From Minisyncoccota bacterium (lineage in GTDB: Bacteria; Patescibacteriota; Minisyncoccia; Phycocordibacterales; GWA1-40-21): DNA of 64,000 nt. Positions 15,123-57,865 of this stretch are shown here, piece after piece. The notes beneath the pieces were generated by a model. The model was not told where the DNA came from and made no database searches. It saw only the letters and a list, made by a program, of their open reading frames with translations. Position 1 is the stretch's first letter. Every line of letters begins with the position of its first letter. The stretch is from the NCBI GenBank assembly GCA_041663045.1, contig JBAZRH010000002.1, forward strand, positions 193,946 to 257,945, given 5' to 3'. A program made the position numbers and the translations under genes.

Positions 15123-16652
15123 ATGTCATTAAAAATAGTAATTCTTCTCGCAGGCCTTGCAGGTCTTTTCGGCATTGCGATAGGTTACTTCTTGCGACTT
15201 ATCATCTCTCTCGGTAAGAAGGGATCAATGGAACTTGAGATCCGACAGATGATGCTAAGCGCCGAGGAGAAAGCCAAGAAGATAATTATCGACGCGGAGA
15301 CGAAGTCCGTCGAGGTAATGAAAGAGATCAAAGAAGAAACACGTCAGAGGGAAGAAAAATTTAAACAAACAGAAGACCGTCTTATAAAGAAAGAGGGACT
15401 TTTGGATGGAAGACAACAGGATATAGACAAAGAAGTAGAGAGTCTGAAGCAAAAAGTCGTTGAAATCAAGGAAATTCGCGATAGAGCCGACAAACTTGAG
15501 ACACAGAAACTTGGAGATTTGCAATCTATTGCAAAGATGACTGAAGAAGATGCAAAGACTTCTCTGCTTGGAGCGATGGAGAGAAAATATGAAGAAGATT
15601 TGCTTGGGAGAATGAAAAAGCTTGAAGAGAATGGTGCAGAGAAAATGGAACACAGAGCTCGCGAGATTCTCGTCACATCGATTCAGAGACTTTCTACATC
15701 TGTTGCACCGGACATTATGTCTACGATGCTCAGTATTCCATCCGATGAAATGAAAGGAAAGATTATCGGTAAAGAGGGTAAGAATATTAAAGCCTTTGAA
15801 AGAGCTACTGGTGTTGAGGTTATAGTAGATGACACTCCTGGTGTCATCACCATCTCCTCTTTTGATCCGATCAGAAGACAAATAGCTAGAGTTGCTCTTG
15901 AAAACTTGCTCATGGACGGCAGAATACAACCAGCGAAGATTGAAAAGATAGTTGAAAAAGCTCAGCAAGATATAAACAAGATAATCAAAGAAAAAGGCGA
16001 ACAAGCTGTATATGAATGCGGAATTTTGAATCTTGACCCTAGGGTTATACAGATTCTCGGTAGACTACACTTTAGAACAAGTTATGGGCAAAATGTTTTG
16101 CAACACTCCATAGAAATGTCCCATATTGCAGGTATGATAGCTGAAGAAGTTGGTGCAAATGTGCAGGTAGCAAAAGCCGGTGCGCTTGTGCATGATATCG
16201 GAAAAGCACTCGATCATGAAGTTGCAGGGACACATGTCGAAATCGGTAGAAGGATTTTACAGAAATTCGGTGTGAGCGAGGAGATCATAAAAGCCATGCA
16301 GTCTCACCATGAAGAATATCCAGCTGAAAATCTTGAAGCTGTGATAGTCACTGTGGCGGATGCGATATCTGGTGGAAGGCCGGGCGCAAGAAGCGATAGT
16401 ATTGAGAATTATATAAAGAGATTGCAGGAGCTTGAGGCTTTGGCAAATTCATTCCAAGGGGTTGAGAAATCCTACGCTTTGCAGGCAGGGCGAGAAATAA
16501 GGATTTTTGTCACTCCGGAGCAGATTACGGATATTGAAGCCAAGAAAATGGCTAGAGATATAGCGGATAAAATAGAGAGTGATCTCAAATACCCTGGAGA
16601 AATCAAGGTTACGGTGATAAGAGAGTCAAGAGTAATAGAATACGCGAGATAA
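15123..16652 (+). CDS. rny: ribonuclease Y
   Basis: N-terminal TM helix, coiled-coil, KH domain (IGKEGKNIKAFE) and HD domain (HDIGKA). Confidence 0.9.
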   Translation: MSLKIVILLAGLAGLFGIAIGYFLRLIISLGKKGSMELEIRQMMLSAEEKAKKIIIDAETKSVEVMKEIKEETRQREEKFKQTEDRLIKKEGLLDGRQQDIDKEVESLKQKVVEIKEIRDRADKLETQKLGDLQSIAKMTEEDAKTSLLGAMERKYEEDLLGRMKKLEENGAEKMEHRAREILVTSIQRLSTSVAPDIMSTMLSIPSDEMKGKIIGKEGKNIKAFERATGVEVIVDDTPGVITISSFDPIRRQIARVALENLLMDGRIQPAKIEKIVEKAQQDINKIIKEKGEQAVYECGILNLDPRVIQILGRLHFRTSYGQNVLQHSIEMSHIAGMIAEEVGANVQVAKAGALVHDIGKALDHEVAGTHVEIGRRILQKFGVSEEIIKAMQSHHEEYPAENLEAVIVTVADAISGGRPGARSDSIENYIKRLQELEALANSFQGVEKSYALQAGREIRIFVTPEQITDIEAKKMARDIADKIESDLKYPGEIKVTVIRESRVIEYAR

Positions 16653-22228: not shown

Positions 22229-22231
22229 TTG

Positions 22232-22297
22232 TCGGGGCGCAGGGATTTGAACCCTGACTATCCGCCTCAGGCGGAGATATTACCTATAATCACACCG
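22232..22297 (-). pseudogene. degenerate tRNA-like copy; its 3' 30 nt are identical to the tRNA-Pro 3' part
   Basis: 66 nt. T-arm and acceptor 3' strand (TAGTCAGGGTTCAAATCCCTGCGCCCCGA) are identical to tRNA-Pro. The 5' acceptor strand CGGTGTG still pairs, but the anticodon arm is a 6-bp stem with a 3-nt loop (TCCGCC-TGA-GGCGGA). Confidence 0.55.
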
Positions 22298-22318
22298 ATA
22301 CCTTTTCTATCTTTATGG

Positions 22319-22389
22319 TCGGGGCGCAGGGATTTGAACCCTGACTACATGCTCCCAAAGCATGGATGCTACCGTTACACCACGCCCCG
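22319..22389 (-). tRNA. tRNA-Pro (anticodon UGG)
   Basis: Acceptor CGGGGCG/CGCCCCG, D-stem GTGT/GCAT, anticodon stem CATGC/GCATG with loop TTTGGGA, T-arm CAGGGTTCAAATCCCTG. Confidence 0.85.
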
Positions 22390-22592
22390 ATATTAAAAGA
22401 TATTAGCATAAAAGTTGTAACGAAGCGAGGGATAAAAATTTTTGTTAGGGGTGGCGAGCCTGCCCCTTTTGAAATGCCTTGGGAGCGCGACGGCGCGAGC
22501 ACGAGGAATTTTTTAGCAAGAAAATATCCGTGCATTTCAAAAGGGGCAGGTCGACAGGACCCCGTGAAAATTTTTATCCAGACAAGCCTCTC

Positions 22593-24131
22593 TCACTGTA
22601 CCCAATGCTTCCCTCTTATCTTTTTCACCTCCTTTTCATTTTCTATTTCCTTTTTTTCTTTCCCTTCCTCGCCGATTTTCTTCAATTCTTTTATTGGCAA
22701 CTTCATAAGTTCTTTCGCACGATTTTCCAAATATTCTTCAGTATTGAGTTTTGGATCTTCAAGTACATCTTCGAGAAGTGCATGCAAAACAAAGCCAACT
22801 TTTGGCCCCGGAGCTTCTTTTGTGACTTCCATAAGTCTTCCCCCATCTATTTTCAGCATTCCCACAGAAATCGGGTCTCTAGTCGCCTCTTCTATCATGG
22901 CATGATATTTTCTTAAGCGATACGGATCGGCTTTTGGTCTGCCCATACCTATCCTATCGGCGATTCGCACATTCATCAAATCCCAAATATTATCTTTGCC
23001 TACTTGAGCGATAATCCTTCTCACAGCCGACAAACTTATCTGCTCAGTATCAGAGAAAAACATATGCCATCTGACAAGCTTAACCACTTTTTCAATAACT
23101 TTTTTCGGATATTTTAAATCGGTGAGAATTTTTTCTGTCATTCTCGCGCCGATCACTTCATGCCCATAGAAAGTCCATTTTTCCTTGCCCGCCTCTTTGG
23201 AGGGGCCCTCGGCCCCTGCCCTGCGAGATTTAGGCTTGCCGATATCGTGAAGCAATGCAGATAATCTTATATCCAAAGGCCACTTTTTATCCGCCGTCTC
23301 CTGAAGCGCCCTCAAAGAATGTTCCCAAACATCATAAATATGGGCACCCTTTTGTTCTATGCTGATAGTCTTTTCCAAATCAGGAATAATATATTTCAAA
23401 ATTCCAAATTTTTGGCAGGATTTTATGCCTTCCATTGGCGTATCCGACATTATTATTTTTGTAAATTCATCGCGTATTCTTTCTTTAGAGATTTTTGCAA
23501 GAAGCCCCGATTCTACAAGCAAAGCTTTCTCCGTGGCTTTATCAATTTCAAAACCGACAAAATTTGCAATCCTTACTGCACGCAAAATCCTCAAACCATC
23601 TTCTTGAAATCTTTCATGTGGGTCGCCGACAGTCCTCAAGACTTTTTTCTTCAAATCATCTTGCCCGCCATAATAGTCCTCAATATTTCCTTTATAAAAT
23701 CCTTCCTTACTCCCCTCTTCTGTGATATTCAATGCAATTGCATTTATGGTGAAATCTCTTCTGTGAAGATCATCGTCTAGCTTTTCACTAAAAATAACTG
23801 CATCGGGTCTCCTATTATCTGAATATTCTGCTTCAAGTCTGTATGGAGTGACTTCTATCACCTTCACTGCTTCGTCTACGGTATTTTCATTTACAACACC
23901 AACAGTACCAAAAGTATTTTCATAAAAAGTCTTTGGAAAAGTGGCAATAATCTGTTCCGGCTTTGCATTTGTCGTAATGTCCCAATCTTTTGGAATAATG
24001 CCGAGCAAAATATCTCTCACACATCCGCCTATGAGATACGCCTCAAAACCCGCCTTTTTCAAAGTCTGCGACGCCTCCCAAACCTCCTTTGGTATCGGCC
24101 CGAATTCTGTTTTATTTGAAGTTTTCTTCAT
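22593..24131 (-). CDS. cca: CCA-adding tRNA nucleotidyltransferase with C-terminal HD domain
   Basis: LIGGCVRDILLG...DWDITT head domain and HD motif HDIGKP, plus a K/E-rich tail. The likely start is MKKTSNK; the track start at 24221 adds an improbable 30-aa extension. Confidence 0.85.
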   Translation of the reverse strand: MKKTSNKTEFGPIPKEVWEASQTLKKAGFEAYLIGGCVRDILLGIIPKDWDITTNAKPEQIIATFPKTFYENTFGTVGVVNENTVDEAVKVIEVTPYRLEAEYSDNRRPDAVIFSEKLDDDLHRRDFTINAIALNITEEGSKEGFYKGNIEDYYGGQDDLKKKVLRTVGDPHERFQEDGLRILRAVRIANFVGFEIDKATEKALLVESGLLAKISKERIRDEFTKIIMSDTPMEGIKSCQKFGILKYIIPDLEKTISIEQKGAHIYDVWEHSLRALQETADKKWPLDIRLSALLHDIGKPKSRRAGAEGPSKEAGKEKWTFYGHEVIGARMTEKILTDLKYPKKVIEKVVKLVRWHMFFSDTEQISLSAVRRIIAQVGKDNIWDLMNVRIADRIGMGRPKADPYRLRKYHAMIEEATRDPISVGMLKIDGGRLMEVTKEAPGPKVGFVLHALLEDVLEDPKLNTEEYLENRAKELMKLPIKELKKIGEEGKEKKEIENEKEVKKIRGKHWVQ

Positions 24132-24523
24132 TAGATGAATTTTAGCAGATATTTTGATAAAAAGAAAAGCGCACTTCCCGGAGGTCATGCGCGATTGGAG
24201 AATGAAACACATCAGAGGCACTTCAGTGTGTTAGGAAGTGAAGGATTGCAATCCCCACAATAAACAGAAACACAATCGAAAATGCTTTGACGTTGTCTCG
24301 GTTGGTCAGGAAGAGATATATTCTCGACTTAAAGAACTCTTCTTCTGCGTGATGCTGTTCGTTCTGTACGTGCGTAAACGGAGGTGTCGGAGGCATTTTG
24401 TCCAGTCCTTTCTTAATGTGCTTTTTTCACAGTGTGATTACTGTAAAAATCATCAACTTTGATAACTAATTAATAATATCAGCCTTTAGACAATATGTCA
24501 AACTAACTCATATTTTTATTTTG

Positions 24524-24595
24524 TGCGCTCGGCAGGACTCGAACCCGCAACAACAGTTCCGAAGACTGTTGTGATATCCATTTCACCACGAGCGC
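24524..24595 (-). tRNA. tRNA-Arg (anticodon UCG)
   Basis: Acceptor GCGCTCG/CGAGCGC, D-stem GTGA/TCAC, anticodon stem ACAGT/ACTGT with loop CTTCGGA, T-arm GCGGGTTCGAGTCCTGC. Confidence 0.85.
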
Positions 24596-24756
24596 AATAT
24601 TAAACTCCCCCATTAGGATTCGGTCACGACTTTTGCTCGGCCGTCGCCATCGCAAAGTCTCGACCCCGACTCGCTTCCAATCCTGCTGGCTTAGGGCCCG
24701 CTCCGTCCTTTAAATCTTTCGCAAGTAAAGACTTTTACTTGCTTTCTAAGATTTAA
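24596..24756 (-). repeat. GC-rich tRNA-associated structured element (family member)
   Basis: In tRNA orientation it contains GGAAGCGAGTCGGGGTCGAGAC, a stem-loop CTTTTGC-GATGGCGACGGCCGAG-CAAAAG, and ends GTGACCGAATCCTAATGGGGGAG; G+C far above flanks. Confidence 0.6.
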
Positions 24757-24809
24757 ACCCACAACAACAGTTCCGAAGACTGTTGTGATATCCATTTCAC
24801 CATGGGAGC
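24757..24809 (-). pseudogene. partial tRNA copy: D-arm and anticodon arm identical to tRNA-Arg(UCG), with a different 5' acceptor strand and no T-arm
   Basis: 41 nt identical to the tRNA-Arg body; acceptor 5' strand GCTCCCA. The element's terminal AATGGGGGAG could pair with it. Confidence 0.55.
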
Positions 24810-24896
24810 ATTTCATCATAATACGCTAAATTGGCTAAAAATCAAAAAACAATTTTGTTTTTTTATAAAATTGTGTATAATACAAAAAGTAAATTT

Positions 24897-24967
24897 GCGG
24901 GCGTAGTTTAATGGTAGAACTAGTCCTTGCCAAGGATTGGGTTCGGGTCCGATTCCCGACGCCCGCA
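24897..24967 (+). tRNA. tRNA-Gly (anticodon GCC)
   Basis: Acceptor GCGGGCG/CGCCCGC, anticodon stem AGTCC/GGATT with loop TTGCCAA, T-arm TCGGGTCCGATTCCCGA; TATAAT at 24876-24881 upstream. Confidence 0.85.
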
Positions 24968-25017
24968 CACATAGCAAAAAAGCGCGTAACTGCGCTTTTT
25001 TGCTATGTGTGCGGGCG
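24960..25017 (+). terminator. 26-bp perfect inverted repeat incorporating the tRNA-Gly acceptor 3' strand
   Basis: CGCCCGCACACATAGCAAAAAAGCGC-GTAACT-GCGCTTTTTTGCTATGTGTGCGGGCG. Confidence 0.6.
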
Positions 25018-32335: not shown

Positions 32336-33304
32336 TTATGATTTATTATGGAATTTTTTGTGAACATCCCGCAAGTGTTTATCCGTAACATGTGTGTAAA
32401 TTTGCGTCGTCGCGATATTTGAGTGGCCGAGCATAGCCTGGACAGAGCGAAGGTCGGCACCGTTTGAAAGCAAGTCCGTGGCAAAGCAATGGCGTATGAC
32501 ATGAGGCGTGACTTTCTTTGTTATTCCAGCTATTGTGGCGTATCTTTTTACAATTCTTTCAATTGTCCTACTAGTAAGACCACCATCCGGATCAGCTGCT
32601 GGTTTGCCTTTTATCTTTTCTTCAGCGACTTTTACAAATAAAGCATCAGACATGTCCTTGCGTAGAGCGAGATATTCTTTAATAGCGGATTTGGCTCCGT
32701 CTGATAAGAATACTACGCGTACTTTACCTCCTTTTCCGCGAATAGAAAATTCGTCCATCTTTATATCCAGATCATTTTTTAGTGAGCACAATTCAGAAAC
32801 ACGAAGGCCGGTGGAAAATAATAATTCTAAAATCGCATGTCCCCTTGCTTTTTTCTCCGGATTTTCTTCCTTATCTGGTGCGGTGAGTAAACGTTTTAAT
32901 TCAGTTTGAGAGATTACGTCTATTGATCTTTCGCCGACTTTAGCCAACTCAATATTATCTGCTGACAAGGAAGTGATACCGCGTCTAGTTAGGAATCTTA
33001 AGAATATGCGCAAAGCAATCAGATAATAATTCTGCGTTTTCTTGGTCATATTATCACTGACAAAAGTCTGATTGGAATTTCTTAGTGTCCCTCGAGTTTT
33101 TGCTCCAGGTCGGCGATTCAACCAAATACGAAATTCACGCACTTTTTCATTAGTAATATCTTTCGGATTTGTAACCTTACTTTGTTTGAAGAAGAGCGTT
33201 AGGTAACGATCATAGTTTTTTATAGTCTTCAACGCCCGTCCTCTTTCGATCTCAATATATTCAAGGAATTGAGTTTTTAGTTCTTGTAAATTCATGTCGC
33301 ACAA
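32336..33304 (-). CDS. tyrosine site-specific recombinase, XerC/XerD-like
   Basis: N-terminal SAM-like domain; catalytic-region R..HxxR..Y signatures RHCFATDLL, LGHSNIATTQIYTHV. Confidence 0.8.
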   Translation of the reverse strand: MCDMNLQELKTQFLEYIEIERGRALKTIKNYDRYLTLFFKQSKVTNPKDITNEKVREFRIWLNRRPGAKTRGTLRNSNQTFVSDNMTKKTQNYYLIALRIFLRFLTRRGITSLSADNIELAKVGERSIDVISQTELKRLLTAPDKEENPEKKARGHAILELLFSTGLRVSELCSLKNDLDIKMDEFSIRGKGGKVRVVFLSDGAKSAIKEYLALRKDMSDALFVKVAEEKIKGKPAADPDGGLTSRTIERIVKRYATIAGITKKVTPHVIRHCFATDLLSNGADLRSVQAMLGHSNIATTQIYTHVTDKHLRDVHKKFHNKS

Positions 33305-39630: not shown

Positions 39631-41769
39631 ATGATAAAAAAAGAATTCTCAATGGAGCTCAACGGCAAGAAATTGTCGGCGGAGTTCAATGACCTTGTGG
39701 AGAATGCACATGGGTCTGTTTTGCTTAGATACGGAAATACAGTTATCCTCGCGACAGCTGTTATTTCAAAGGAGCCAAAAATGGGGGGCGATTATCTTCC
39801 GCTCACGGTAGATTATGAAGAAAAGTTTTATGCCTCAGGACAGATTCTTGGTAGCCGATTTATGAAGAGAGAAGGTAAACCTTCTGACGAAGCTATTTTG
39901 TCTGGTCGCGTGGTAGATAGGACTATCCGCCCGCTTTTTGACCAATGGATTCGAAATGAAATACAAGTGGTGGTCACGATTCTCTCCATTGAGGAGGATG
40001 ATCCAGATGTACTTGGAGTTGTCGCCGCGTCTCTTGCTCTTGGAGTTTCAAAGATTCCATTCCACGGGCCAGTTTCAGCTGTCAGAATCGGCAAACACAA
40101 AGCAGATGGTTTCCAAGTAAACCCAACATATACAGAAAGAGAAAATGAAAATTATGAAATTGACCTTATCGCCTGCGGAAAAGACGGAAATATAAATATG
40201 ATAGAGCTTGGCGGAGATGAAGCCCAGGAAAATGTGATCGTGGATGCCATGGAAAAAGCATCTGAAGAAATTGAAAAAATAAATGAATGGCAGAAGTCCG
40301 TCATAAAAGAAATCGGTGTTCAAAAACTTTCTATTCCAGCTCCGGTGATGCCAGAAGAAGTGAAAAAACTTTTTGCAACAGAAATTGAACCAAAACTCGA
40401 AAGCTATGTAATGAGTGGTATTCCTGGCGGGTCAAAAATAGGAGAAATAATGGATATTTGGATGAAACTTGCAGAAGAAAAGCTTCCTGAAGTTGATTCG
40501 CATTTTGCCGAATCTTTATTTGAAGGAAAAGTGGACGAAATGATACACGAGCAGGCTTTGAAAAATAATAAAAGAGCAGATGGAAGGGGAATAGATGAGC
40601 TCCGACCTCTTTTTGCACAAGCTGGCGGGATTTCGCCGATACTTCATGGCTCTGGAATATTTTACAGAGGAGGAACACATATTCTTACCGCACTAACACT
40701 TGGTGGGCCAAGCGATGCACAGATAATAAACGGTATGGAAGAGAGTAATGATGCAAAAAGATTTATGCACCATTACAATTTCCCTCCATATTCAACAGGT
40801 GAAACAGGTAGAATGGGTGGAACAAATAGAAGAATGATCGGTCATGGAGCCCTCGCAGAAAAAGCCCTTGAGCCAATGATTCCAAAACAAGATAAATTCC
40901 CTTATACGATAAGGCTTGTTTCTGAAGCGATGTCTTCAAACGGCTCGACTTCGATGGGATCTGTTTGTGCTTCCACAATCGCTCTTATGGATGGAGGAGT
41001 GCCGATAAAAGCACCTGTTGCTGGTATTGCATCAGGTCTTATGATGGATGATAAAGGGAATTATAAAGTGCTTACGGATATTCAAGGCCCAGAGGATCAT
41101 TATGGAGATATGGATTTTAAAGTTGCGGGGACAAAGAGCGGTGTCACAGCGATACAAATGGATGTGAAAGTTTCTGGTGTACCTATTCCAGCTCTTGCCG
41201 AAGCATTTGAAAAAGCAAAGGCAGCGAGATTAAAAATATTGGATGTCATCTTGAAAGCAATCCCTGAATCAAGGAAAGATATTGCTTCGAGTGCGCCAAA
41301 GATTTTGGTTATAAAGATTAAACAAGAACAAATCGGTGGAATAATCGGTAGCGGTGGAAAGACGATTAAAGAAATAAAAGAAAAAACTGGTGCAGATATT
41401 GATATTGAAGATGACGGCACTGTGTATTGTACTGGAAAAGACGGCTCTGCAGAAAAAGCAAAGAAAATTATTGAGGGGATGACCCATGAATACAAAGCGG
41501 GGGAGAGATATGAGGGAGAGGTTGTGAAGATCACTGAATTCGGAGCTTTCGTGAAGATTGGGTATAACACCGAAGGTCTTGTGCATATTTCTGAAATTGC
41601 GCCTTTCAGAGTGGACAGAGTTGAGAAATATCTGAGAGTTGGGCAGAAGGTGCCGATCATGGTGAAGGGTATAGATGAAAGAGAGAGGGTAAGTCTTTCT
41701 ATCAAAATGGCGGATCCGAAATTGTTTAGTGCGCCAGCTGCGGCTACGCCGATACCGCCAGCGAAATAA
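39631..41769 (+). CDS. pnp: polyribonucleotide nucleotidyltransferase
   Basis: Two RNase PH domains, KH (IGGIIGSGGKTIKEI) and S1 domains; 712 aa. Confidence 0.95.
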   Translation: MIKKEFSMELNGKKLSAEFNDLVENAHGSVLLRYGNTVILATAVISKEPKMGGDYLPLTVDYEEKFYASGQILGSRFMKREGKPSDEAILSGRVVDRTIRPLFDQWIRNEIQVVVTILSIEEDDPDVLGVVAASLALGVSKIPFHGPVSAVRIGKHKADGFQVNPTYTERENENYEIDLIACGKDGNINMIELGGDEAQENVIVDAMEKASEEIEKINEWQKSVIKEIGVQKLSIPAPVMPEEVKKLFATEIEPKLESYVMSGIPGGSKIGEIMDIWMKLAEEKLPEVDSHFAESLFEGKVDEMIHEQALKNNKRADGRGIDELRPLFAQAGGISPILHGSGIFYRGGTHILTALTLGGPSDAQIINGMEESNDAKRFMHHYNFPPYSTGETGRMGGTNRRMIGHGALAEKALEPMIPKQDKFPYTIRLVSEAMSSNGSTSMGSVCASTIALMDGGVPIKAPVAGIASGLMMDDKGNYKVLTDIQGPEDHYGDMDFKVAGTKSGVTAIQMDVKVSGVPIPALAEAFEKAKAARLKILDVILKAIPESRKDIASSAPKILVIKIKQEQIGGIIGSGGKTIKEIKEKTGADIDIEDDGTVYCTGKDGSAEKAKKIIEGMTHEYKAGERYEGEVVKITEFGAFVKIGYNTEGLVHISEIAPFRVDRVEKYLRVGQKVPIMVKGIDERERVSLSIKMADPKLFSAPAAATPIPPAK

Positions 41770-41779
41770 ACACTCACTC

Positions 41780-41874
41780 AATACCGCCCTTTTTGGAACA
41801 CGCATAATTTTCTGCTGAAAATTTGCTCCCTCTCATGCCGTCGCATTCCGAGAGTTTCCAAAAAGGGCGGTATT
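41780..41874. repeat. 19-bp perfect inverted repeat with 57-nt spacer downstream of pnp
   Basis: AATACCGCCCTTTTTGGAA ... TTCCAAAAAGGGCGGTATT, followed by a second terminator hairpin at 41891..41925 and TATAAT at 41931-41936. Confidence 0.6.
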
Positions 41875-50563: not shown

Positions 50564-50584
50564 CATTAACAAAAAATGCCGATA

Positions 50585-50777
50585 ATAAATATCGGTATTT
50601 TTTGTTAACTATGCGAAAGCTTGCCGAGATTCGAACGGCGGAGCACACGGAGCGAAGCGGAGTCTGTCGCGAGCACGCGACAGGCACGAGCCGGTGCCCA
50701 ACCCGAATCCGAGCGACGGCGAGGATGAGAGGTGCGGGCGAATCTCACCTCTTCCGCATTAACAAAAAATGCCGATA
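50585..50777 (+). repeat. GC-rich tRNA-trailing element ending in an exact 38-nt copy of the tRNA-Ser 3' end plus terminator
   Basis: Direct repeat GAATCTCACCTCTTCCGCATTAACAAAAAATGCCGATA at 50547..50584 and 50740..50777. Interior contains antisense GAGATTCGAAC, hairpins CTGTCGCG-AGCA-CGCGACAG and GGCAC-GAGCCG-GTGCC, and ATCC-GAGCGACGGCGAG-GGAT. Confidence 0.65.
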
Positions 50778-50802
50778 TTTATTATCGGTGTTTTTTGTTT
50801 TG

Positions 50803-51083: not shown

Positions 51084-51836
51084 ATGAAATATTTAGGAAT
51101 TGATTATGGAGAGAAAAGGGTAGGGATAGCCATATCTGACAATGATGGAAAGGTAGCCTTTCCCAAGATTGTCTTTGAGAATAACACTGACCTTTTTAAA
51201 AGAATATCTGAATTTTGTATAGAAAACAAAGTGGAGGCTATCGTCGTGGGAGAATCGAAAAATTACAAAGGTGAAGAAAACAAAATAAATCCCAAGATAA
51301 TTTCTTTCAAGAGAGAACTATCTGGTCTTATTAAACTACCAATTTCACTTGAACCAGAATTTATGTCTTCGATGCAGGTAGAGAAAACTTTTGGTAAGAC
51401 AGAAATGCTCGATGCTTCTGCCGCTTCGATAATTTTGCAGACATTCTTAGATAAAGAAAAAAATAGACAGGAGAAAAAAAAGCAAGCCGAGGCGACAATT
51501 GCCGACAAAAAAATAACTTATGACGATTTCAAAAAAGTCGAGATGAAAATAGGGAAAATACTTTCTGTCGAGCCGGTTGCCGGTTCTGATAAGCTTTTGA
51601 AACTCTCTGTCGATTTCGCAGAAGGCACACCAAGGCAGATTCTTTCTGGGATCGCCAAGTATTTTTCTGATTATCAGACACTTGTCGGAAAGAAAGTCGC
51701 TTTCGTCACCAACCTTGAGTCTAGGGAAATGATGGGACTTCAGAGTAACGGTATGATTCTTGCTGCACATACTGGTGATAGTCTCGCTATCATGGAAGTT
51801 CCGGATTTTATAAAAGAGGGGACAGAACTAAGTTAA
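51084..51836 (+). CDS. ruvX: fusion of RuvX/YqgF-like pre-16S rRNA nuclease with a C-terminal tRNA-binding (Myf/Trbp111/CsaA-like) domain
   Basis: N-terminal MKYLGIDYGEKRVGIAISD; C-terminal KVEMKIGKILSVEPVAGSDKLLKLSVDFAEG...ILSGIAK...GMILAA. Confidence 0.7.
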   Translation: MKYLGIDYGEKRVGIAISDNDGKVAFPKIVFENNTDLFKRISEFCIENKVEAIVVGESKNYKGEENKINPKIISFKRELSGLIKLPISLEPEFMSSMQVEKTFGKTEMLDASAASIILQTFLDKEKNRQEKKKQAEATIADKKITYDDFKKVEMKIGKILSVEPVAGSDKLLKLSVDFAEGTPRQILSGIAKYFSDYQTLVGKKVAFVTNLESREMMGLQSNGMILAAHTGDSLAIMEVPDFIKEGTELS

Positions 51837-55108: not shown

Positions 55109-55180
55109 GCCGCCATAGTTCAATGGATAGAACAGAGCTCTTCTAAGGCTTTGATGTAGGTTCGATTCCTACTGGCGGCA
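55109..55180 (+). tRNA. tRNA-Arg (anticodon UCU)
   Basis: Acceptor GCCGCCA/TGGCGGC, D-arm GTTCAATGGATAGAAC, anticodon loop CTTCTAA, T-arm GTAGGTTCGATTCCTAC. Confidence 0.8.
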
Positions 55181-55480
55181 CAAAATGAAAAAGGTGGAAA
55201 TCAATCCGCCTTTTTCATTTTGTGTCGCCAAGCAAGCAAACTGCTTTGCTTGCGGGTAGGAATCGAACAGCGGAACTATGTTTTTTCAGCAGAAAAAACT
55301 AGTGAGCTGGTGCCCAGACTTTTTCGAGCGACGGCGAGAAAAAAGTCGAGGGAGATAAGCGAAGTGGTCCTGCTGGAATCGAAGCCCCATTGAGCGTTTT
55401 TTGTAATTTCTGAATGAACAAAAAATCCAATGGGGGGGGTACTGACCCTGTAAGGGTCGATATCCTGCTGGCGGCTTTTT
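55181..55480 (+). repeat. composite GC-rich tRNA-trailing element(s) with two degenerate copies of the tRNA-Arg 3' end
   Basis: Terminator at 55180..55224; antisense GTAGGAATCGAAC (55256..55268); hairpin GACTTTTTC-GAGCGACGGCGAG-AAAAAAGTC (55317..55347); 3'-end-like GGAATCGAAGCCCC and GGGTCGATATCCTGCTGGCGGC-TTTTT (55454..55480). Confidence 0.6.
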
Positions 55481-55516: not shown

Positions 55517-55589
55517 GGGCGATTAGCTCAGTTGGTAGAGCGCTTCATTTACACTGAAGATGTCACAGGTTCGAGTCCTGTATCGCCCA
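55517..55589 (+). tRNA. tRNA-Val (anticodon UAC)
   Basis: Acceptor GGGCGAT/ATCGCCC, D-arm GCTCAGTTGGTAGAGC, anticodon stem CTTCA/TGAAG with loop TTTACAC, T-arm ACAGGTTCGAGTCCTGT. Confidence 0.85.
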
Positions 55590-55742
55590 CAGGCAAAAAG
55601 AGGGCAAATGCGAAAACTTGAAGTATTTGTTCTCTTTTTGGCTAATGATACAGGATTCGAAAGACGGAACACGACGGTGTGAGTCGGGGTCGCAGGATTT
55701 TCTAGCAGGAAAATACCTGTGACCGAGTCCTGTATCGCCCAC
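55590..55742 (+). repeat. GC-rich tRNA-trailing element ending in a 19-nt exact copy of the tRNA-Val 3' end
   Basis: Antisense GATACAGGATTCG (55647..55659); GGTGTGAGTCGGGGTCGCAGG; junction CTGTGACCGAGTCCTGTATCGCCCAC (55717..55742) then TTTTTT-ATG of rluA. Confidence 0.65.
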
Positions 55743-55748
55743 TTTTTT

Positions 55749-56492
55749 ATGAAAAAATCCCCAGAAATAGAAATACTATATGAAGATAAAGACGCATTGG
55801 TTATAAACAAACCTGCTGGGCTTATTGTGCATCCCGACGGGCATACAGAAGAACCGACCCTCGTGGACTGGATTTTGAAGAAGTATCCGAGAATGAAAAA
55901 AGTTGGCGAACCACTTGTACTTTCGGATGGCACGGAAATCTTCCGCCCAGGGATTGTCCATAGAATAGACCGCGATACTTCTGGTGCACTTATTATTGCC
56001 AAGAATCAGAAAGCCTACGAATTCTTGAAAGGTCAATTTAAAGCGAGAAAGGTTCATAAAATCTATCATGCATTTATTTATGGGAATTTAAAAGAAGACA
56101 GAGGAATGATAGACCGCCCGATAGGTAGAAGTCCGAACGATTTCAGAAAATGGTCTGCACAGAGAGGGGCAAGAGGTGAACTTCGTCCGGCAACCACATA
56201 TTTTAGAGTGCTCGCAAGAAAAGACGGCATTACTTTCATTGAAGCAATACCAAAAACCGGTAGAACGCATCAAATCCGCACACATTTTAAAGCTATAAAC
56301 TATCCTGTGGTGCAAGATCATCTTTATGCCACCAGGAATCTTTTGGATCAAAAGAATCAAGCAGGATTCAAAAGGCTCGCCCTTCATGCCAAAGAGCTTG
56401 AGATTAAGATTTCACCGGAGAAGACTATAAATATTAAAGCCCCGTACCCGAGAGATTTCGATAAAGCAGTGAAAGAAATAAATAAAGTTTAG
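55749..56492 (+). CDS. rluA: RluA-family pseudouridine synthase
   Basis: [16 protein letters not shown] catalytic motif. Start taken at ATG 55749; the track's GTG start at 55719 translates the tRNA-3'-end copy (MTESCIAHFF). Confidence 0.8.
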
Positions 56493-56493
56493 C

Positions 56494-56991
56494 TTGCTAA
56501 TTGAGGCTGATTATGTTAAATTACTCATCACTATGGAATTAAAGAATATCAAAGTGGCACCGATAGATGTTGAAGCAAGAAAGAATGTAGACATAAGACC
56601 AGGAGATACCGTTCGTGTCTGGCAGAAAATTCAGGAAGGCGAAAAATCAAGACTTCAAGCTTTTGAAGGTGTTGTCCTTGCTAAAAAACACGGCAAAGAA
56701 AATGGCGGAACATTTACCGTAAGAAAAGTTATAGACAGTGTTGGAGTAGAGAGAATCTTTCCGTTATACTCACCAATTATAGATGAAATCGAAGTTTTGA
56801 AGAGAGCAAAAGTCAGAAGATCAAAACTTTACTTTATCAGAGAAAAAGCCGCAAAAGATATAAGAAAGAGAATGAAGAGCGAACTTTTAGAGGCAAGAAA
56901 AGAATCAAATACAGATACTTCCGAAGCCAAGAAAGTAAAAGAAGAAGTAAAAAAGGCAGAAGTGGAAGCAAAAGCAGAAGAGAAGAAATAA
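56494..56991 (+). CDS. rplS: 50S ribosomal protein L19 with N- and C-terminal extensions
   Basis: [27 protein letters not shown]...[34 protein letters not shown]. Confidence 0.85.
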
Positions 56992-57078
56992 AAAAAGAAA
57001 AGCCGCGCCCTTCGGGCGCGGCTTTTTATAAGAGATTGAAAATAAGGGTAAATCTGCTATTATGAGAAAGTTCGAAAT

Positions 57079-57162
57079 GCACGGGTGGCGAAACTGGTAG
57101 ACGCACTACCTTGAGGTGGTAGCGCCCGTAAGGGCGTGGAGGTTCGAGTCCTCTCCCGTGCA
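57079..57162 (+). tRNA. tRNA-Leu (anticodon GAG), long variable arm
   Basis: Acceptor GCACGGG/CCCGTGC, anticodon stem CTACC/GGTAG with loop TTGAGGT, variable arm CGCCCGTAAGGGCG, T-arm GGAGGTTCGAGTCCTCT. Confidence 0.8.
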
Positions 57163-57311
57163 CAAAATAAGCAAATTTATTTGCTTATGTAATTGGGGAC
57201 GAGAAAACCGGAGCGATGCCGAGCCAGCAGGCGAGGCCGTGAGGCGGGGTCGAGAGTTTTTGTGAGCGACGGCGAACAAAAAACTTGTGACCGAGTCCTC
57301 TCCCGTGCACA
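57163..57311 (+). repeat. GC-rich tRNA-trailing element ending in a 20-nt exact copy of the tRNA-Leu 3' end
   Basis: Terminator-like hairpin at 57165..57188; CCGTGAGGCGGGGTCGAGAG; hairpin AGTTTTTGT-GAGCGACGGCGA-ACAAAAACT (57255..57284); junction TTGTGACCGAGTCCTCTCCCGTGCACA then ATT-ATG of the pduO-type gene. Confidence 0.65.
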
Positions 57312-57313
57312 TT

Positions 57314-57865
57314 ATGTTATTCACTAGAAAAGGCGACGATGGTAAAACCACAATATTTGGCTGTGATCAGAGGCTTTCAAAGAGTTCTGATATTGCTGAA
57401 GCACTTGGAACACTTGATGAGGCGAATTCTTTCCTTGGAATCTGTAAGGCGAAGATGAGAGAATCGAAAACCAAGATTCTTAATTTAAAGATTGAAGAAA
57501 TTCTACATGCCATCCAAGAAAACTTATTTATAATACAAGCACAAGTCGCTGGTGGTGACAAAAGAATCGATAAAGAAAAAATTTCTGAAATGGAAAGTCT
57601 GATAGGAGGGATAGAAAGCGAATTGCCACCCATAAAATCATTTATGATTTCTGGCAGTACCGAAATATCCGCACTTTTCGATTTCGCTCGCACACTTTGC
57701 CGACGTGCTGAAAGGAGAGTGGTAGCAGTAAGTGAAGAAAACCTTGCGAAGATAGATGAAGAAACCCTCGCATATCTCAACCGCCTCTCAAGCTTAATCT
57801 ATGCTCTGGCTAGATATTTCTCCAAAGAAGCCGGTATAAAGGAAGAATCTCCAGAATATAAATAA
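57314..57865 (+). CDS. PduO-type ATP:cob(I)alamin adenosyltransferase family protein (MMAB-like)
   Basis: FTRKGDDGKTT N-terminal motif. Start taken at ATG 57314; the track GTG start at 57287 translates the tRNA-Leu 3'-end copy. Confidence 0.7.
   Translation: MLFTRKGDDGKTTIFGCDQRLSKSSDIAEALGTLDEANSFLGICKAKMRESKTKILNLKIEEILHAIQENLFIIQAQVAGGDKRIDKEKISEMESLIGGIESELPPIKSFMISGSTEISALFDFARTLCRRAERRVVAVSEENLAKIDEETLAYLNRLSSLIYALARYFSKEAGIKEESPEYK

Follow-up and report, generated by a model that had tools for sequence, protein, structure and literature searches.

About half of the tRNA genes in the window, the whole stretch of 64,000 nt that was analysed, have a GC-rich insert of ~90-350 nt on their 3' side. 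Each insert combines a conserved three-helix RNA fold with a terminal duplicate of the 3' end of the local tRNA. The host tRNAs were detected with ARAGORN and Rfam, and the coordinates of the elements and their parts are collected in Table 1. The sequence-only reading had joined five tRNA loci into one family. These loci indeed share modules in a fixed order, but they divide into two sister subfamilies, to which nested and non-tRNA relatives are added. Type 1 comprises the Val, Leu and Arg-UCG elements with the signature CGGGGUCG...GUGAC, type 2 the Ser and Arg-UCU elements with the signature GGUGCCCA...GAGGGAGA. A covariance model built from copies outside the window, termed R1, matches the three type-1 elements (E = 1e-27 to 1e-7) and misses Ser and Arg-UCU. 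Altogether, 8 modules are present in the window. The interval to which the family had been assigned, 55590-57311, contains the Val and Leu elements as well as two genes, but not the other three elements, which lie at 24603-24724(-), 50565-50799 and 55182-55475, the last of these at the Arg-UCU locus.

Table 1. Host tRNAs, elements and element parts in the window.
Feature	Coordinates	Strand	Details
Host tRNA-Val(UAC)	55517..55590	+	positions 56-74 = repeat copy S1, 55572-55590, CGAGTCCTGTATCGCCCAC
Val element, trailer	55591..55646	+	AT-rich hairpin CAAAAAGAG / CTCTTTTTG
Val element, 5' arm	55647..55659	+	GATACAGGATTCG; 5' strand of P1, antisense to tRNA positions 56-68
Val element, P2 with junctions	55660..55687	+	junction AAAG; P2 (GAC-GGA-ACAC GACG GUGU-GA-GUC, tandem G·A internal loop); junction GG
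Val element, P3	55688..55723	+	GGUCGCAGGAUUUUC-UAGC-AGGAAAAUACCUGUGAC; invariant G·U, bulged U, terminal invariant GUGAC
Val repeat copy S2	55724..55742	+	exact 19-nt copy of tRNA-Val positions 56-74; 3' strand of P1
Host tRNA-Leu(GAG)	57079..57163	+	S1 = 57145-57164
Leu element, unit	57165..57291	+	trailer hairpin AAGCAAAUUUAUUUGCUU; short arm GGGGAC (57195-57200); long P2, tip CCAGCAGG; P3, tip GAGCGACGGCGA; terminus GUGAC
Leu repeat copy S2	57292..57311	+	exact 20-nt copy of tRNA-Leu positions 56-75
Arg(UCG) element, type 1, decaying	24603..24724	-	R1: 35 bits, E = 7e-8
Element after tRNA-Ser(UGA), type 2	50565..50738	+	duplicated terminator; arm GAGATTCGAAC (50626-50636); GGCGGAGC-P2-CGAGCC; GGTGCCCA; P3 tip GAGCGACGGCGAG (50711-50723)
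Ser repeat copy S2	50739..50799	+	copy of tRNA-Ser from position 56 through the terminator hairpin (~60 nt)
Element after tRNA-Arg(UCU), type 2	55232..55376	+	P0 tip AACUGCUU (55232-55253); arm GGGTAGGAATCGAAC (55254-55268); P2; GGTGCCCAG; P3 tip GAGCGACGGCGAG (55326-55338); GAGGGAGATAAGCGAAGTGG; partial tRNA copy TCCTGCTGG (55368-55376)
Type-3 module nested in Arg-UCU tRNA copy	55377..55475	+	..ACTGACC-hairpin-GGGTCGATA
Type-4 element, no tRNA link	41777..41871	-	R1: 49.8 bits
Second type-4 copy, no tRNA link	22463..22552	+	R1: 40.8 bits

The unit consists, in this order, of a variable trailer hairpin, often a hairpin P0 with the tip AACUGCUU, a 5' arm whose sequence (GGAyUCG or GGAy-GAG) is the complement of the T-stem and of the conserved 3' half of the T-loop, a conserved three-way junction that includes helix P2, which holds a tandem G·A internal loop, and helix P3 with an invariant G·U pair and the terminus GUGAC. 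The motifs quoted in the earlier reading were all recovered in place: GAGCGACGGCGAG is exact at 50711 and 55326 and has one mismatch at 57264, GTGAGNCGGGGTCG is exact at 55679 and 57239 and has one mismatch at 24661-24674(-), and GTGACCGARTCCT is exact at 55719, 57287 and 24615-24627(-). With up to 3 mismatches allowed, GAGCGACGGCGAG yields 15 matches, compared with a chance expectation of 4.1. The fixed hairpin loop described earlier is found in Ser and Arg-UCU, where GAGCGACGGCGAG is exact, but Val has a UAGCAG loop instead. Judged from its sequence, GAGCGACGGCGAG can itself be drawn as a mini-hairpin between tandem G·A pairs, and in compact copies this motif forms helix P2.

The individual loci differ in their surroundings. 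Behind the second repeat copy (S2) of the Val element, six T precede the ATG of an RluA-like gene at 55749, while S2 of the Leu element is followed by the native flank TTATG and a gene start at 57314. The Arg(UCG) element sits between a degenerate tRNA-Arg copy (24739-24810), which precedes it, and the intact tRNA-Arg (24523-24595). In the Ser element, the loop of the terminator hairpin in S2 is inverted with respect to the first copy. The Arg-UCU element has counterparts at the same tRNA in the relatives L123 and L125; the type-3 module nested in it, after which a second copy of the tRNA end is found (TCCTGCTGGCGGC, 55463-55475), also occurs in the relatives L122 (twice) and L123. In the type-4 element at 41.8 kb the same P2 and P3 modules are enclosed by a 14-bp palindromic stem (ACCGCCCUUUUUGG / CCAAAAAGGGCGGU). 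The second type-4 copy has a related stem of 18 bp and is located upstream of a tRNA-Pro on the opposite strand. A plain 30-nt duplication of its own 3' end is seen at tRNA-Pro.

In every predicted fold the arm closes onto the tRNA copy, in agreement with the closing stem that had been proposed for the segments at the element ends. The fold energy of the Val element is -51 kcal/mol (z = -7.1), and z-scores of -2.2 to -3.7 were obtained for the other elements. When 19 copies were aligned with MAFFT, pairing was found in 86.5% of the cells, compared with at most 46% when the partners are slid, and 22 of the 34 pairs show compensatory changes. For 108 independent metagenome copies the values are 86.8% and at most 42%, with compensatory changes in 27 of the 34 pairs and the invariant G·U kept in 106 of 107 copies, which bears out the stem covariation noted from the window. 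P2 and P3 contain 175 G·U but only 13 A·C combinations, indicating that the fold is selected on the sense strand. Helices P2 and P3 are strongly backed by covariation, the junction nucleotides are conserved across many Patescibacteria classes, and the conclusion that the family defines a new RNA fold is well supported. The closing stem P1, which had been named as a candidate substrate for RNase P/Z and the CCA enzyme, comprises 6-16 bp, compared with 12 bp for an acceptor/T-type helix, and usually spans positions 56 to ~68, leaving 5-8 nt unpaired. Its inner pairs are formed nearly always, whereas the outer ones are paired in 50-60% and show no excess of G·U over A·C; hence, the outer pairs are apparently not selected as RNA. 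The arms antisense to the cognate T-arm are present as described, GATACAGGATTCG in Val and GGGTAGGAATCGAAC in Arg-UCU, but they are only partly tRNA-specific, with on average 7.8 of 11 positions pairing with the cognate tRNA and 6.8 of 11 with a non-cognate control.

Several known structures were compared with this fold and rejected. By inspection, the junction order does not fit the hammerhead core, and a kink-turn does not match since the bulge in the P2 internal loop has 1 nt and not 3 nt. A kissing interaction of the P0 loop CUGC with the CAGCAG loops is inconsistent across copies. The published case of group I introns in Patescibacteria tRNAs concerns the anticodon loop only, and MRSC-65-2 is a single long stem. 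Searches of the window and of an Acidovorax copy against Rfam 15 with gathering and permissive thresholds let only tRNA pass, the sub-threshold matches over the elements being noise, and a literature search found no description of the family, consistent with the earlier statement that no such element class has been described.

A search for further copies led to ~200 more type-1 copies in other genomes and metagenomes, mainly of Patescibacteria. A pattern scan of genomes gave 120 loci, and R1 recognized 68, 26 and 111 copies when applied to three sets of retrieved loci, and 0 among high-GC chance matches; as loci were gathered by motif pattern, both prevalence and uniformity are overestimated by these numbers. 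Copies can be dense, with up to 5 per 6-8 kb, and tandem and nested arrays occur. Type-1 copies lie 15-90 nt downstream of tRNAs and invariably in the orientation of the tRNA. For 57 of 71 copies a tRNA was found on the same strand at most 400 nt upstream, and the 141 tRNA-linked copies are distributed over tRNAs of 18 amino-acid types. Promoter-like sites are located upstream of the tRNAs only. On the downstream side, a gene starts within 40 nt in only 12 of 92 copies. An RNase Z-type site kept for the downstream mRNA, which would fit the Val and Leu loci of the window, was rejected on the basis of this low proportion. A BLAST search of phage and plasmid collections with one copy gave no match, and of 10 matches in a pattern scan of viral contigs none was confirmed by the covariance model. 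A metagenome scan for one specific P3 variant also yielded nothing.

The second repeat copy starts with C56, directly after GTGAC, so that the junction falls between T-loop positions 55 and 56 in ~140 copies. The exact copies of the tRNA 3' end reported for Val (19 nt) and Leu (20 nt) are both present. Generally, the repeat has a modal length of 19-21 bp (range 17-25, occasionally ~60) and ends at position 73 in 6 copies, 74 in 19, 75 in 13 and 76 in 27, 20 of the latter at an encoded CCA. While the 3' end of the unit is always GTGAC before C56, its 5' ends are not conserved. The upstream tRNA remains intact after insertion, and S2 and whole copies undergo decay. A CCA follows S2 in 11 of 44 cases and the upstream repeat copy S1 in 6 of 44, compared with 24 of 105 for element-free tRNAs. 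S2 as a retro-copy of a mature, CCA-tailed tRNA was rejected, as the rate of CCA after S2 is that of ordinary tRNA genes and the empty Leu site shows that the flank of S2 is native.

Comparison of the tRNA loci between relatives revealed that the presence of the element varies, with clean empty sites at Leu and Val. tRNA-Leu is empty in L121 (92% relative), where its flank equals the flank after S2 in the window, and also in L123 and L126; tRNA-Val is empty in L122, L123 and L126, and tRNA-His is filled in L122 and empty in the window. The Leu unit of the window is 86% identical to the Val unit of L125, each flanked by positions 56-74 of the local tRNA, whereas identity between the two Val units is only 56%. 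Among 44 pairs of units that could be aligned, 27 are located at different tRNAs. One and the same unit can be found at different tRNAs, its two repeat copies then match the tRNA of the respective locus, and the sequence behind the second copy is native flank; this identifies the repeat as a target duplication. Of the recombinase crossover suggested earlier, the position of the junction in the T-loop, exactly between 55 and 56, is supported, but not a classical crossover in which the element brings its own tRNA end. Some uncertainty about the insertion point comes from the trailers. The first 28 nt of the Val trailer are alike in 23 positions to the native trailer of L122, and the Arg-UCU element of L123 is preceded by a terminator that the empty L126 has as well. 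Hence, some insertions may have occurred farther from the tRNA, on its downstream side, or deletions may have produced the 'empty' sites.

We consider the elements to be, probably, a large family of small, non-autonomous, structured mobile elements specific for tRNA 3' ends. They would insert at the 3' end of a tRNA gene in the orientation of the tRNA and be transcribed together with it. Insertion duplicates the target from C56 to position 73-76, and the duplicate pairs with the arm and closes the fold. The RNA or the sense-strand DNA presumably has to fold for the element to spread or be tolerated. If the elements are mobile, two routes appear equally possible. An RNA intermediate, for which the sense-strand selection of the fold and the location inside tRNA transcription units speak indirectly, might be copied at a T-loop nick, primed via the shared CGArUCC microhomology in a way that resembles target-primed reverse transcription. 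Alternatively, replication might switch templates from one tRNA locus to another, with the CCA end and the T-loop serving as microhomologies and the arm being adjusted later by quasi-palindrome correction. A third route, with a trans-acting integrase or transposase cutting the strands ~19 bp apart, seems somewhat more doubtful. The non-conserved 5' ends of the units are unlike those of a cut-and-paste transposon and count against the mobile reading.

A structured RNA derived from tRNA 3' trailers could instead benefit the host, for example by serving in processing, decay or termination or by binding a protein, and be kept by selection, with strain turnover being secondary. The strong covariation, the invariant G·U and the conserved junction nucleotides across many Patescibacteria classes are in agreement with such a role, which would also be consistent with P2 and P3 being under strong purifying selection across phyla, and the element is located inside tRNA transcription units and has no linked mobility gene. 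A selected host function is, however, difficult to reconcile with clean empty sites at the same tRNAs in close relatives, with different variants at one tRNA and one variant at different tRNAs, and with the high copy numbers per genome, including tandem and nested arrays. Decay of S2 and of whole copies, as well as the inconsistent downstream context (12 of 92 copies with a gene start within 40 nt), also argue against it, and we regard this explanation as unlikely.

No protein genes were found to travel with the element. Only RluA and ClpB recur as neighbours of the copies, owing to conserved gene order, and in the 3.5 kb around 43 loci no recombinase gene was found repeatedly. The Xer-like recombinase of the window had been named as a candidate; its gene (32336-33304) is more than 7 kb from the nearest copy and linked to none. 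Among ~35 of the larger ORFs of the window (roughly half of those of at least 110 aa), no reverse transcriptase, Cas1 or transposase was found; the relative L124 contains the reverse transcriptase of a diversity-generating retroelement. Near the copies there is no Cas1 (casposase) gene, and the elements have no conserved terminal repeats.

These results also bear on the view of the elements as remnants or miniature att modules of tRNA-targeting integrative elements, in which a tyrosine integrase would cross over in the T-loop and the repeat would correspond to the identity block shared by attL and attR. The direct repeats of T-loop-type integrases reportedly begin in the T-loop and reach the tRNA end (Williams 2002). 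The repeat observed here has the same extent, the Xer-like recombinase is encoded in the window, and tandem arrays would fit as well. Still, an att module is improbable, given that a single unit is found at different tRNAs, each time with two repeats that match the local tRNA, where a hybrid tRNA would otherwise be expected, and that no integrase was found near ~40 loci. The uniform size (90-160 nt), the strand-specific structure with G·U far above A·C and the lack of matches in the phage, plasmid and viral-contig searches point in the same direction.

An interpretation as guides for an RNA-directed nuclease or recombinase, comparable to omega-RNAs, bridge RNAs or TIGR RNAs, is very improbable; in this view, a conserved scaffold would carry segments matching both strands of the tRNA gene. 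In its favour, the elements combine a scaffold with an 18-21-nt target-identical 3' segment and an antisense 5' segment, and dual-strand guides are known in TIGR-Tas and IS110 systems, parasitic bacteria included (PMC12045711). TIGR and bridge RNA guides, however, address adjacent, non-covarying target halves (PMC12045711), whereas the two 'guides' of the elements, arm and S2, are complementary to each other and correspond to the same target positions. Moreover, there is no adjacent effector gene, and the 3' segment, which decays, is explained by target duplication. Finally, diverged tandem tRNA duplicates (pseudo-tRNAs), for which the degenerate tRNA copy beside the intact one at Arg-UCG and the plain 30-nt duplication at tRNA-Pro might speak, are hardly credible, as had already been argued from the window, because a core without tRNA features, in which the Rfam tRNA model gives no match, is common to tRNAs of 18 amino-acid types and because the arm is antisense, not sense, to the tRNA.

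Overall, the observation made from the window is confirmed and its interpretation partly supported. A more far-reaching and rather doubtful extension of the mobile-element reading is that the family represents a bacterial counterpart of SINEs, i.e. a protein-less structured RNA that would arise from tRNA precursors and be copied into other T-loops, its built-in complement to the universal T-loop sequence possibly acting as a homing device; alternatively, the conserved three-way junction might act as a small ribozyme or protein-recruiting RNA of a new kind, with cutting or joining at GUGAC|C56. The genomes of Patescibacteria are tiny and contain hardly any non-coding DNA, yet several elements are carried per 64 kb. 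Something must be driving their spread or ensuring that they are tolerated. With a structure-bounded piece of tRNA being duplicated, from T-loop 55/56 to the acceptor end at 73-76, the family allows site-specific insertion to be tested, and it raises the question whether elements in bacteria can move via RNA or, by template switching, without an enzyme. On the practical side, the family matters for annotation, as assemblies break at the GC-rich inserts and duplicated tRNA ends, which also look like att sites, and the elements could be used as markers for strain-level population genetics of uncultured lineages.

With the islands and prophages of T-loop tyrosine integrases, the elements share a direct repeat from the tRNA T-loop to the 3' end, an intact tRNA and tandem arrays at one tRNA. 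They differ in being small (100-200 nt) and free of an integrase, in having a repeat that stems from the target and is not carried along, in not forming one lineage per tRNA, and in their interior, which is a conserved, strand-specific RNA-type fold. Like MITEs and other small repeats (REP/BIME, Correia, RUP, BOX, ERIC) they are short, multi-copy, non-coding and intergenic, are cotranscribed with their neighbours, form stable hairpins and vary in presence between strains. In contrast to these repeats, they have no conserved terminal inverted repeats, the type-1 'repeat' being the target itself, and the closing stem of types 1 and 2 follows the local tRNA, with a stem sequence shared only by the two type-4 copies. 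Their target duplication measures 18-21 bp (2-10 bp in MITEs), their insertion is strictly site- and orientation-specific (tRNA position 56 to 73-76), and their internal helices covary.

Casposons and CRISPR spacer integration likewise duplicate a long target segment by staggered attacks, and casposons are often found at tRNA gene 3' ends and form arrays; the elements lack a Cas1 gene and terminal inverted repeats, and their duplication of 18-21 bp compares with 14-15 bp for casposons and one repeat length for CRISPR. Similar to tRNA-like substrates (mascRNA, viral tRNA-like structures, minihelices), the elements have a helix of T-stem and acceptor 3' strand that ends in the discriminator, sometimes in CCA, but the T-loop is replaced by a three-way junction of 60-120 nt and the acceptor stem is usually incomplete. 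To our knowledge, no target-primed SINE-type or non-LTR retroelement is known in bacteria. Compared with SINEs, the elements have no A-rich or simple-repeat tail, and no reverse transcriptase was found in the scanned ORFs of the window. With SINEs and site-specific non-LTR retroelements they nevertheless share the precise 3' junction, the variable 5' region and the variable length of the duplication, as well as an RNA with a conserved 3' structure; propagation would likewise depend on a trans-acting enzyme, and the element RNA would be made by polymerase read-through from the tRNA promoter.

ARAGORN places 11 tRNA-like genes in the window, ten of which are confirmed by Rfam, and Rfam matches nothing else there. 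The sequence-only reading had described a family of GC-rich elements trailing five tRNAs (Val, Leu, Arg-UCG, Ser and Arg-UCU); such inserts are present at all five loci, with every quoted motif where it had been placed. As had also been claimed, the Val and Leu inserts end in an exact copy (S2) of the 3' end of the host tRNA (S1), and at both loci S2 starts at T-loop position C56, immediately 3' of GTGAC. In the fold of each insert a 5' arm pairs with the tRNA-end copy (helix P1) and encloses two helices, P2 and P3; the Val insert folds with -51 kcal/mol (z = -7.1).

The covariance model R1, made from copies of the layout seen at Val, Leu and Arg-UCG (type 1), matches these three inserts with 102 (E = 2e-27), 50 (E = 4e-12) and 35 bits (E = 7e-8), respectively. 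It does not match those of Ser and Arg-UCU, which have a second layout, so that the five loci fall into two subfamilies. Copies were found well beyond the window, in other genomes and in metagenomes. A two-module pattern, CGGGGTCG...GTGACCGARTCC, run over one genome per species gave 120 loci, about half of them chance matches in high-GC genomes and the rest with complete architecture; because type-1 motifs were used for the collection, diversity is under-sampled and uniformity overstated. In three collections of fetched loci R1 matches 68, 26 and 111 copies, and it matches none of the chance loci. Hosts of the full architecture are Saccharibacteria, Paceibacteria, Moranbacteria, Campbellbacteria, Adlerbacteria, Woesebacteria and Berkelbacteria. 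A few further contigs are labelled Elusimicrobia, Bdellovibrionota, Deltaproteobacteria, Acidovorax and Bordetella, labels that rest on MAG bins and may reflect binning errors. Despite possible misbinning, the GC content of the Acidovorax copy matches. This GC-rich copy lies 3' of a tRNA-Ser, has an arm and 3' copy that fit each other and not the adjoining tRNA, carries a truncated second 5' part upstream, and suggests that the family extends into Betaproteobacteria.

The stem covariation and the structural claims of the earlier reading hold. Nineteen compact copies were straightforward to align, and RNAalifold recovered P2 and P3. Counted on the MAFFT alignment of these copies with our structure (P1, P2a, P2b, P3), standard pairs occupy 86.5% of cells, compared to 33-46% with the partners slid, and 22 of the 34 pairs show both-sided changes; none of 500 shuffles reached the observed values. 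An independent metagenome scan yielded 108 distinct copies with 86.8% paired (at most 42% when slid) and 27 of 34 pairs compensatory, in an alignment that was fitted to R1 and is hence biased to its structure, a bias that touches neither the counts on the MAFFT alignment nor the slid controls. One G·U pair is retained in 106 of 107 metagenome copies. P2 and P3 together contain 175 G·U but 13 A·C pairs; selection therefore acts on these helices, and with them on the conserved three-way-junction fold, in the tRNA-sense strand (RNA or single-stranded DNA). The corresponding counts for P1 are 76 and 81, and its imperfections therefore look neutral.

Besides the Ser and Arg-UCU inserts, the second layout (type 2) comprises five further copies, namely L122 at tRNA-His, L123 and L125 at tRNA-Arg, L124 and L171. 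It reads arm, UCGAAC, GnCGGArC, P2, GGUGCCCA, P3 (frequently with a GAGCGACGGCGA tip), GAGGGAGA.. and tRNA copy. A nested module (type 3) and two non-tRNA copies (type 4) are listed in the table. The palindromic stem is common to both type-4 copies, and neither adjoins a same-strand tRNA. They flank two genes: some 40 nt separate one copy from the 3' end of the CCA-adding enzyme gene, and the second copy lies some 10 nt beyond the PNPase stop codon; RNase Y is also encoded in the window. Directly upstream of the arm, a large subset of elements has a further hairpin, whose stem covaries and whose AACUGCUU tip is conserved; it is seen in the window and at many loci (e.g. L025, L082, L085, L120) and probably forms a fourth helix (P0) in the full-length RNA.

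Positions of elements, tRNA-end copies and genes in the window and in loci from other genomes (L-numbers)
Feature	Sequence	Position	Strand	Remark
tRNA-Val 3' end; copy	window	55572-55590; 55724-55742		
tRNA-Leu 3' end; copy	window	57145-57164; 57292-57311		
Type 3, ..ACUGACC-hairpin-GGGUCGAUA	window	55377-55462		nested in tRNA copy of other elements; also L122, L123
Type 4	window	41777-41871	(-)	same P2 and P3 within palindromic stem
Type 4	window	22463-22552	(+)	same P2 and P3 within palindromic stem
AACUGCUU-tip hairpin	window	55232-55253		
tRNA-Ser terminator copies	window	~50575-50612; ~50768-50799		loops AATAAAT; ATTTATT
tRNA-Pro	window	22316-22389	(-)	
tRNA-Pro duplicate	window	22231-22260	(-)	30 nt
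tRNA-Gly(GCC)	window	24955-25016 (terminator hairpin)		
tRNA-Arg(UCU)	window	55170-55233 (terminator hairpin)		
CCA-adding enzyme	window	22593-24209	(-)	
PNPase	window	39631-41766	(+)	
RNase Y	window	15123-16649	(+)	
Xer-like recombinase	window	32336-33304		
RuvX/YqgF fusion	window	51084-51833	(+)	
tRNA-Leu element	L122	4754-4962 (with tRNA T-loop)		
tRNA-Leu element	L125	1823-2023 (with tRNA T-loop)		
Acidovorax MAG copy	L077	4706-4960		
Inverted tRNA-Val	L121	1-30		at contig end
Diversity-generating retroelement	L124	2436-3801		bAvd and reverse transcriptase

A same-strand tRNA lies within 400 nt upstream of 57 of 71 R1 matches, mostly at a distance of 15-90 nt. Across a larger set, 141 copies are linked to a tRNA, with 18 amino-acid types represented. 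The elements sit inside tRNA transcription units, promoter-like sites being confined to the stretch upstream of the tRNAs. The repeat starts at C56 in every case, and the identity of S1 and S2 ends at position 73 (6 copies), 74 (19), 75 (13) or 76 (27, 20 of these at an encoded CCA). Repeat lengths were determined by exact matching; shorter values come from decayed copies, and values of at least 40 arise where units are in tandem or the terminator is duplicated. From tRNA geometry, the boundaries would coincide with where the 3' strand of the acceptor/T-arm helix starts and stops. The tRNA-Pro gene has a plain duplicate of its whole T-arm and acceptor 3' end, preceded by a 55-nt spacer without core modules and followed after 2 nt by the start of the downstream gene. 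This duplicate may be what an excised, or a different, element has left behind. At tRNA-Gly(GCC) and tRNA-Arg(UCU) the tRNA's own acceptor 3' strand is the 5' arm of the terminator hairpin, so that tRNA and terminator would compete in folding.

The earlier reading had taken the junction to fit a recombinase crossover in the T-loop. We replace this with duplication of the target, as similar units occur at different tRNAs with repeats that match the local tRNA. The window tRNA-Leu unit including its trailer hairpin and the L125 tRNA-Val unit are 86% identical (104 of 121 nt), with compensatory pairs among the differences, and each is bounded on both sides by positions 56-74 of its own tRNA, while the Val units of the window and L125 share just 56%. 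The window Val arm and core are 79% identical to the L122 Arg-UCU element, with nearly the same P3. At least 75% of the length could be aligned for 44 unit pairs, and 27 of these are at different tRNAs (e.g. Leu/Arg 84%, Leu/Val 83%, Val/Ile 82%, Ser/Tyr 82%). An element carrying its own tRNA end would make hybrid tRNAs at a new host; the repeat is therefore the duplicated target, from position 56 to 73-76. CCA follows S2 in 25% of cases and element-free tRNA genes in 23%, but S1 in only 14%, so the native flank is on the S2 side.

The window has a Patescibacteria-like character, its RluA-like protein having its closest relatives in Paceibacteria MAGs. Relatives were fetched via this protein (amino-acid identity 92% for L121, 88% for L122, 87% for L125, 81% for L123 and 80% for L126). 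In the presence/absence comparison, the same tRNAs are filled in some relatives and empty in others. The tRNA-Leu site, filled in the window, is empty in L121, L123 and L126 and filled with another variant in L122 and L125; the tRNA-Val site, likewise filled, is empty in L122, L123 and L126 and holds another unit in L125. At tRNA-Arg-UCU the window, L125 and L123 carry type 2, L122 carries type 1 and L126 is empty, and tRNA-His, empty in the window, has a type-2 element in L122. ATTATG directly 3' of the empty L121 tRNA-Leu is the exact flank after S2 in the window. The elements insert at a specific site and in a specific orientation and duplicate their target, and part of the empty sites may be deletion scars. 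In L121, the closest relative, tRNA-Val is inverted directly upstream of the RluA-like gene, either by a real inversion or by an assembly break at the repeat.

When similar units from different tRNAs are compared, the arm (7-10 nt) varies and matches the local tRNA, and both flanking sequences are conserved. On average 7.8 of 11 arm positions pair with the cognate tRNA versus 6.8 with the non-cognate control, a modest specificity, and much of P1 is therefore a generic complement of the conserved CGArUCC. Where S1 and S2 differ, the arm fits only the tRNA copy at 44 positions and only S2 at 22. Two similarly arranged tRNA-Leu elements (L122, L125) switch G/A together at four sites, T-loop position 57, its arm complement, S2 and the T-loop-like end of the nested module, which indicates concerted evolution with the tRNA. 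Arm, S2 and module end are kept in register with it, possibly by repeated re-insertion, gene conversion or quasi-palindrome correction via template switching. The last is a known mutational route. The tRNA-Ser terminator copies have identical stems and an inverted loop, a change typical of template switching within a hairpin.

The element would carry in its arm a complement to the near-universal T-loop 3' half and to the start of the T-stem, so that the fold closes on whichever tRNA end is duplicated. Three routes are compatible with a precise 3' junction, 5' ends that are not conserved and repeat ends spread over positions 73-76: a T-loop nick priming reverse transcription, replication template switching between tRNA loci with microhomology at the CCA end and T-loop, or an integrase that acts in trans and has a ~19-bp stagger. 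The selection seen on P2 and P3 speaks for either an RNA (or single-strand) stage in the spread or a function in benefit or tolerance. The retroelement of L124, a 75% relative, separates the RluA-like gene from rplS and shows that reverse transcriptases are present in the lineage. When the ORFs lying within 3.5 kb of 43 copies were clustered, only the RluA-like and ClpB families recurred, due to conserved gene order. About 35 larger window ORFs (roughly half of those of at least 110 aa) are housekeeping genes, apart from the Xer-like recombinase and one EEP-family nuclease. Just downstream of the tRNA-Ser element, a RuvX/YqgF-type nuclease domain is fused to a tRNA-binding (Trbp111/CsaA-like) domain, speculatively a candidate enzyme for tRNA-shaped substrates.

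Rfam, phage and plasmid collections and viral contigs gave no match to the elements, and no description of a tRNA-trailing element family was found in the literature, in line with the earlier reading, which knew of no such class. Overall, the original observation is confirmed and extended, and readings as TIGR-Tas, bridge-RNA or omega-RNA fail on gene linkage and guide geometry.
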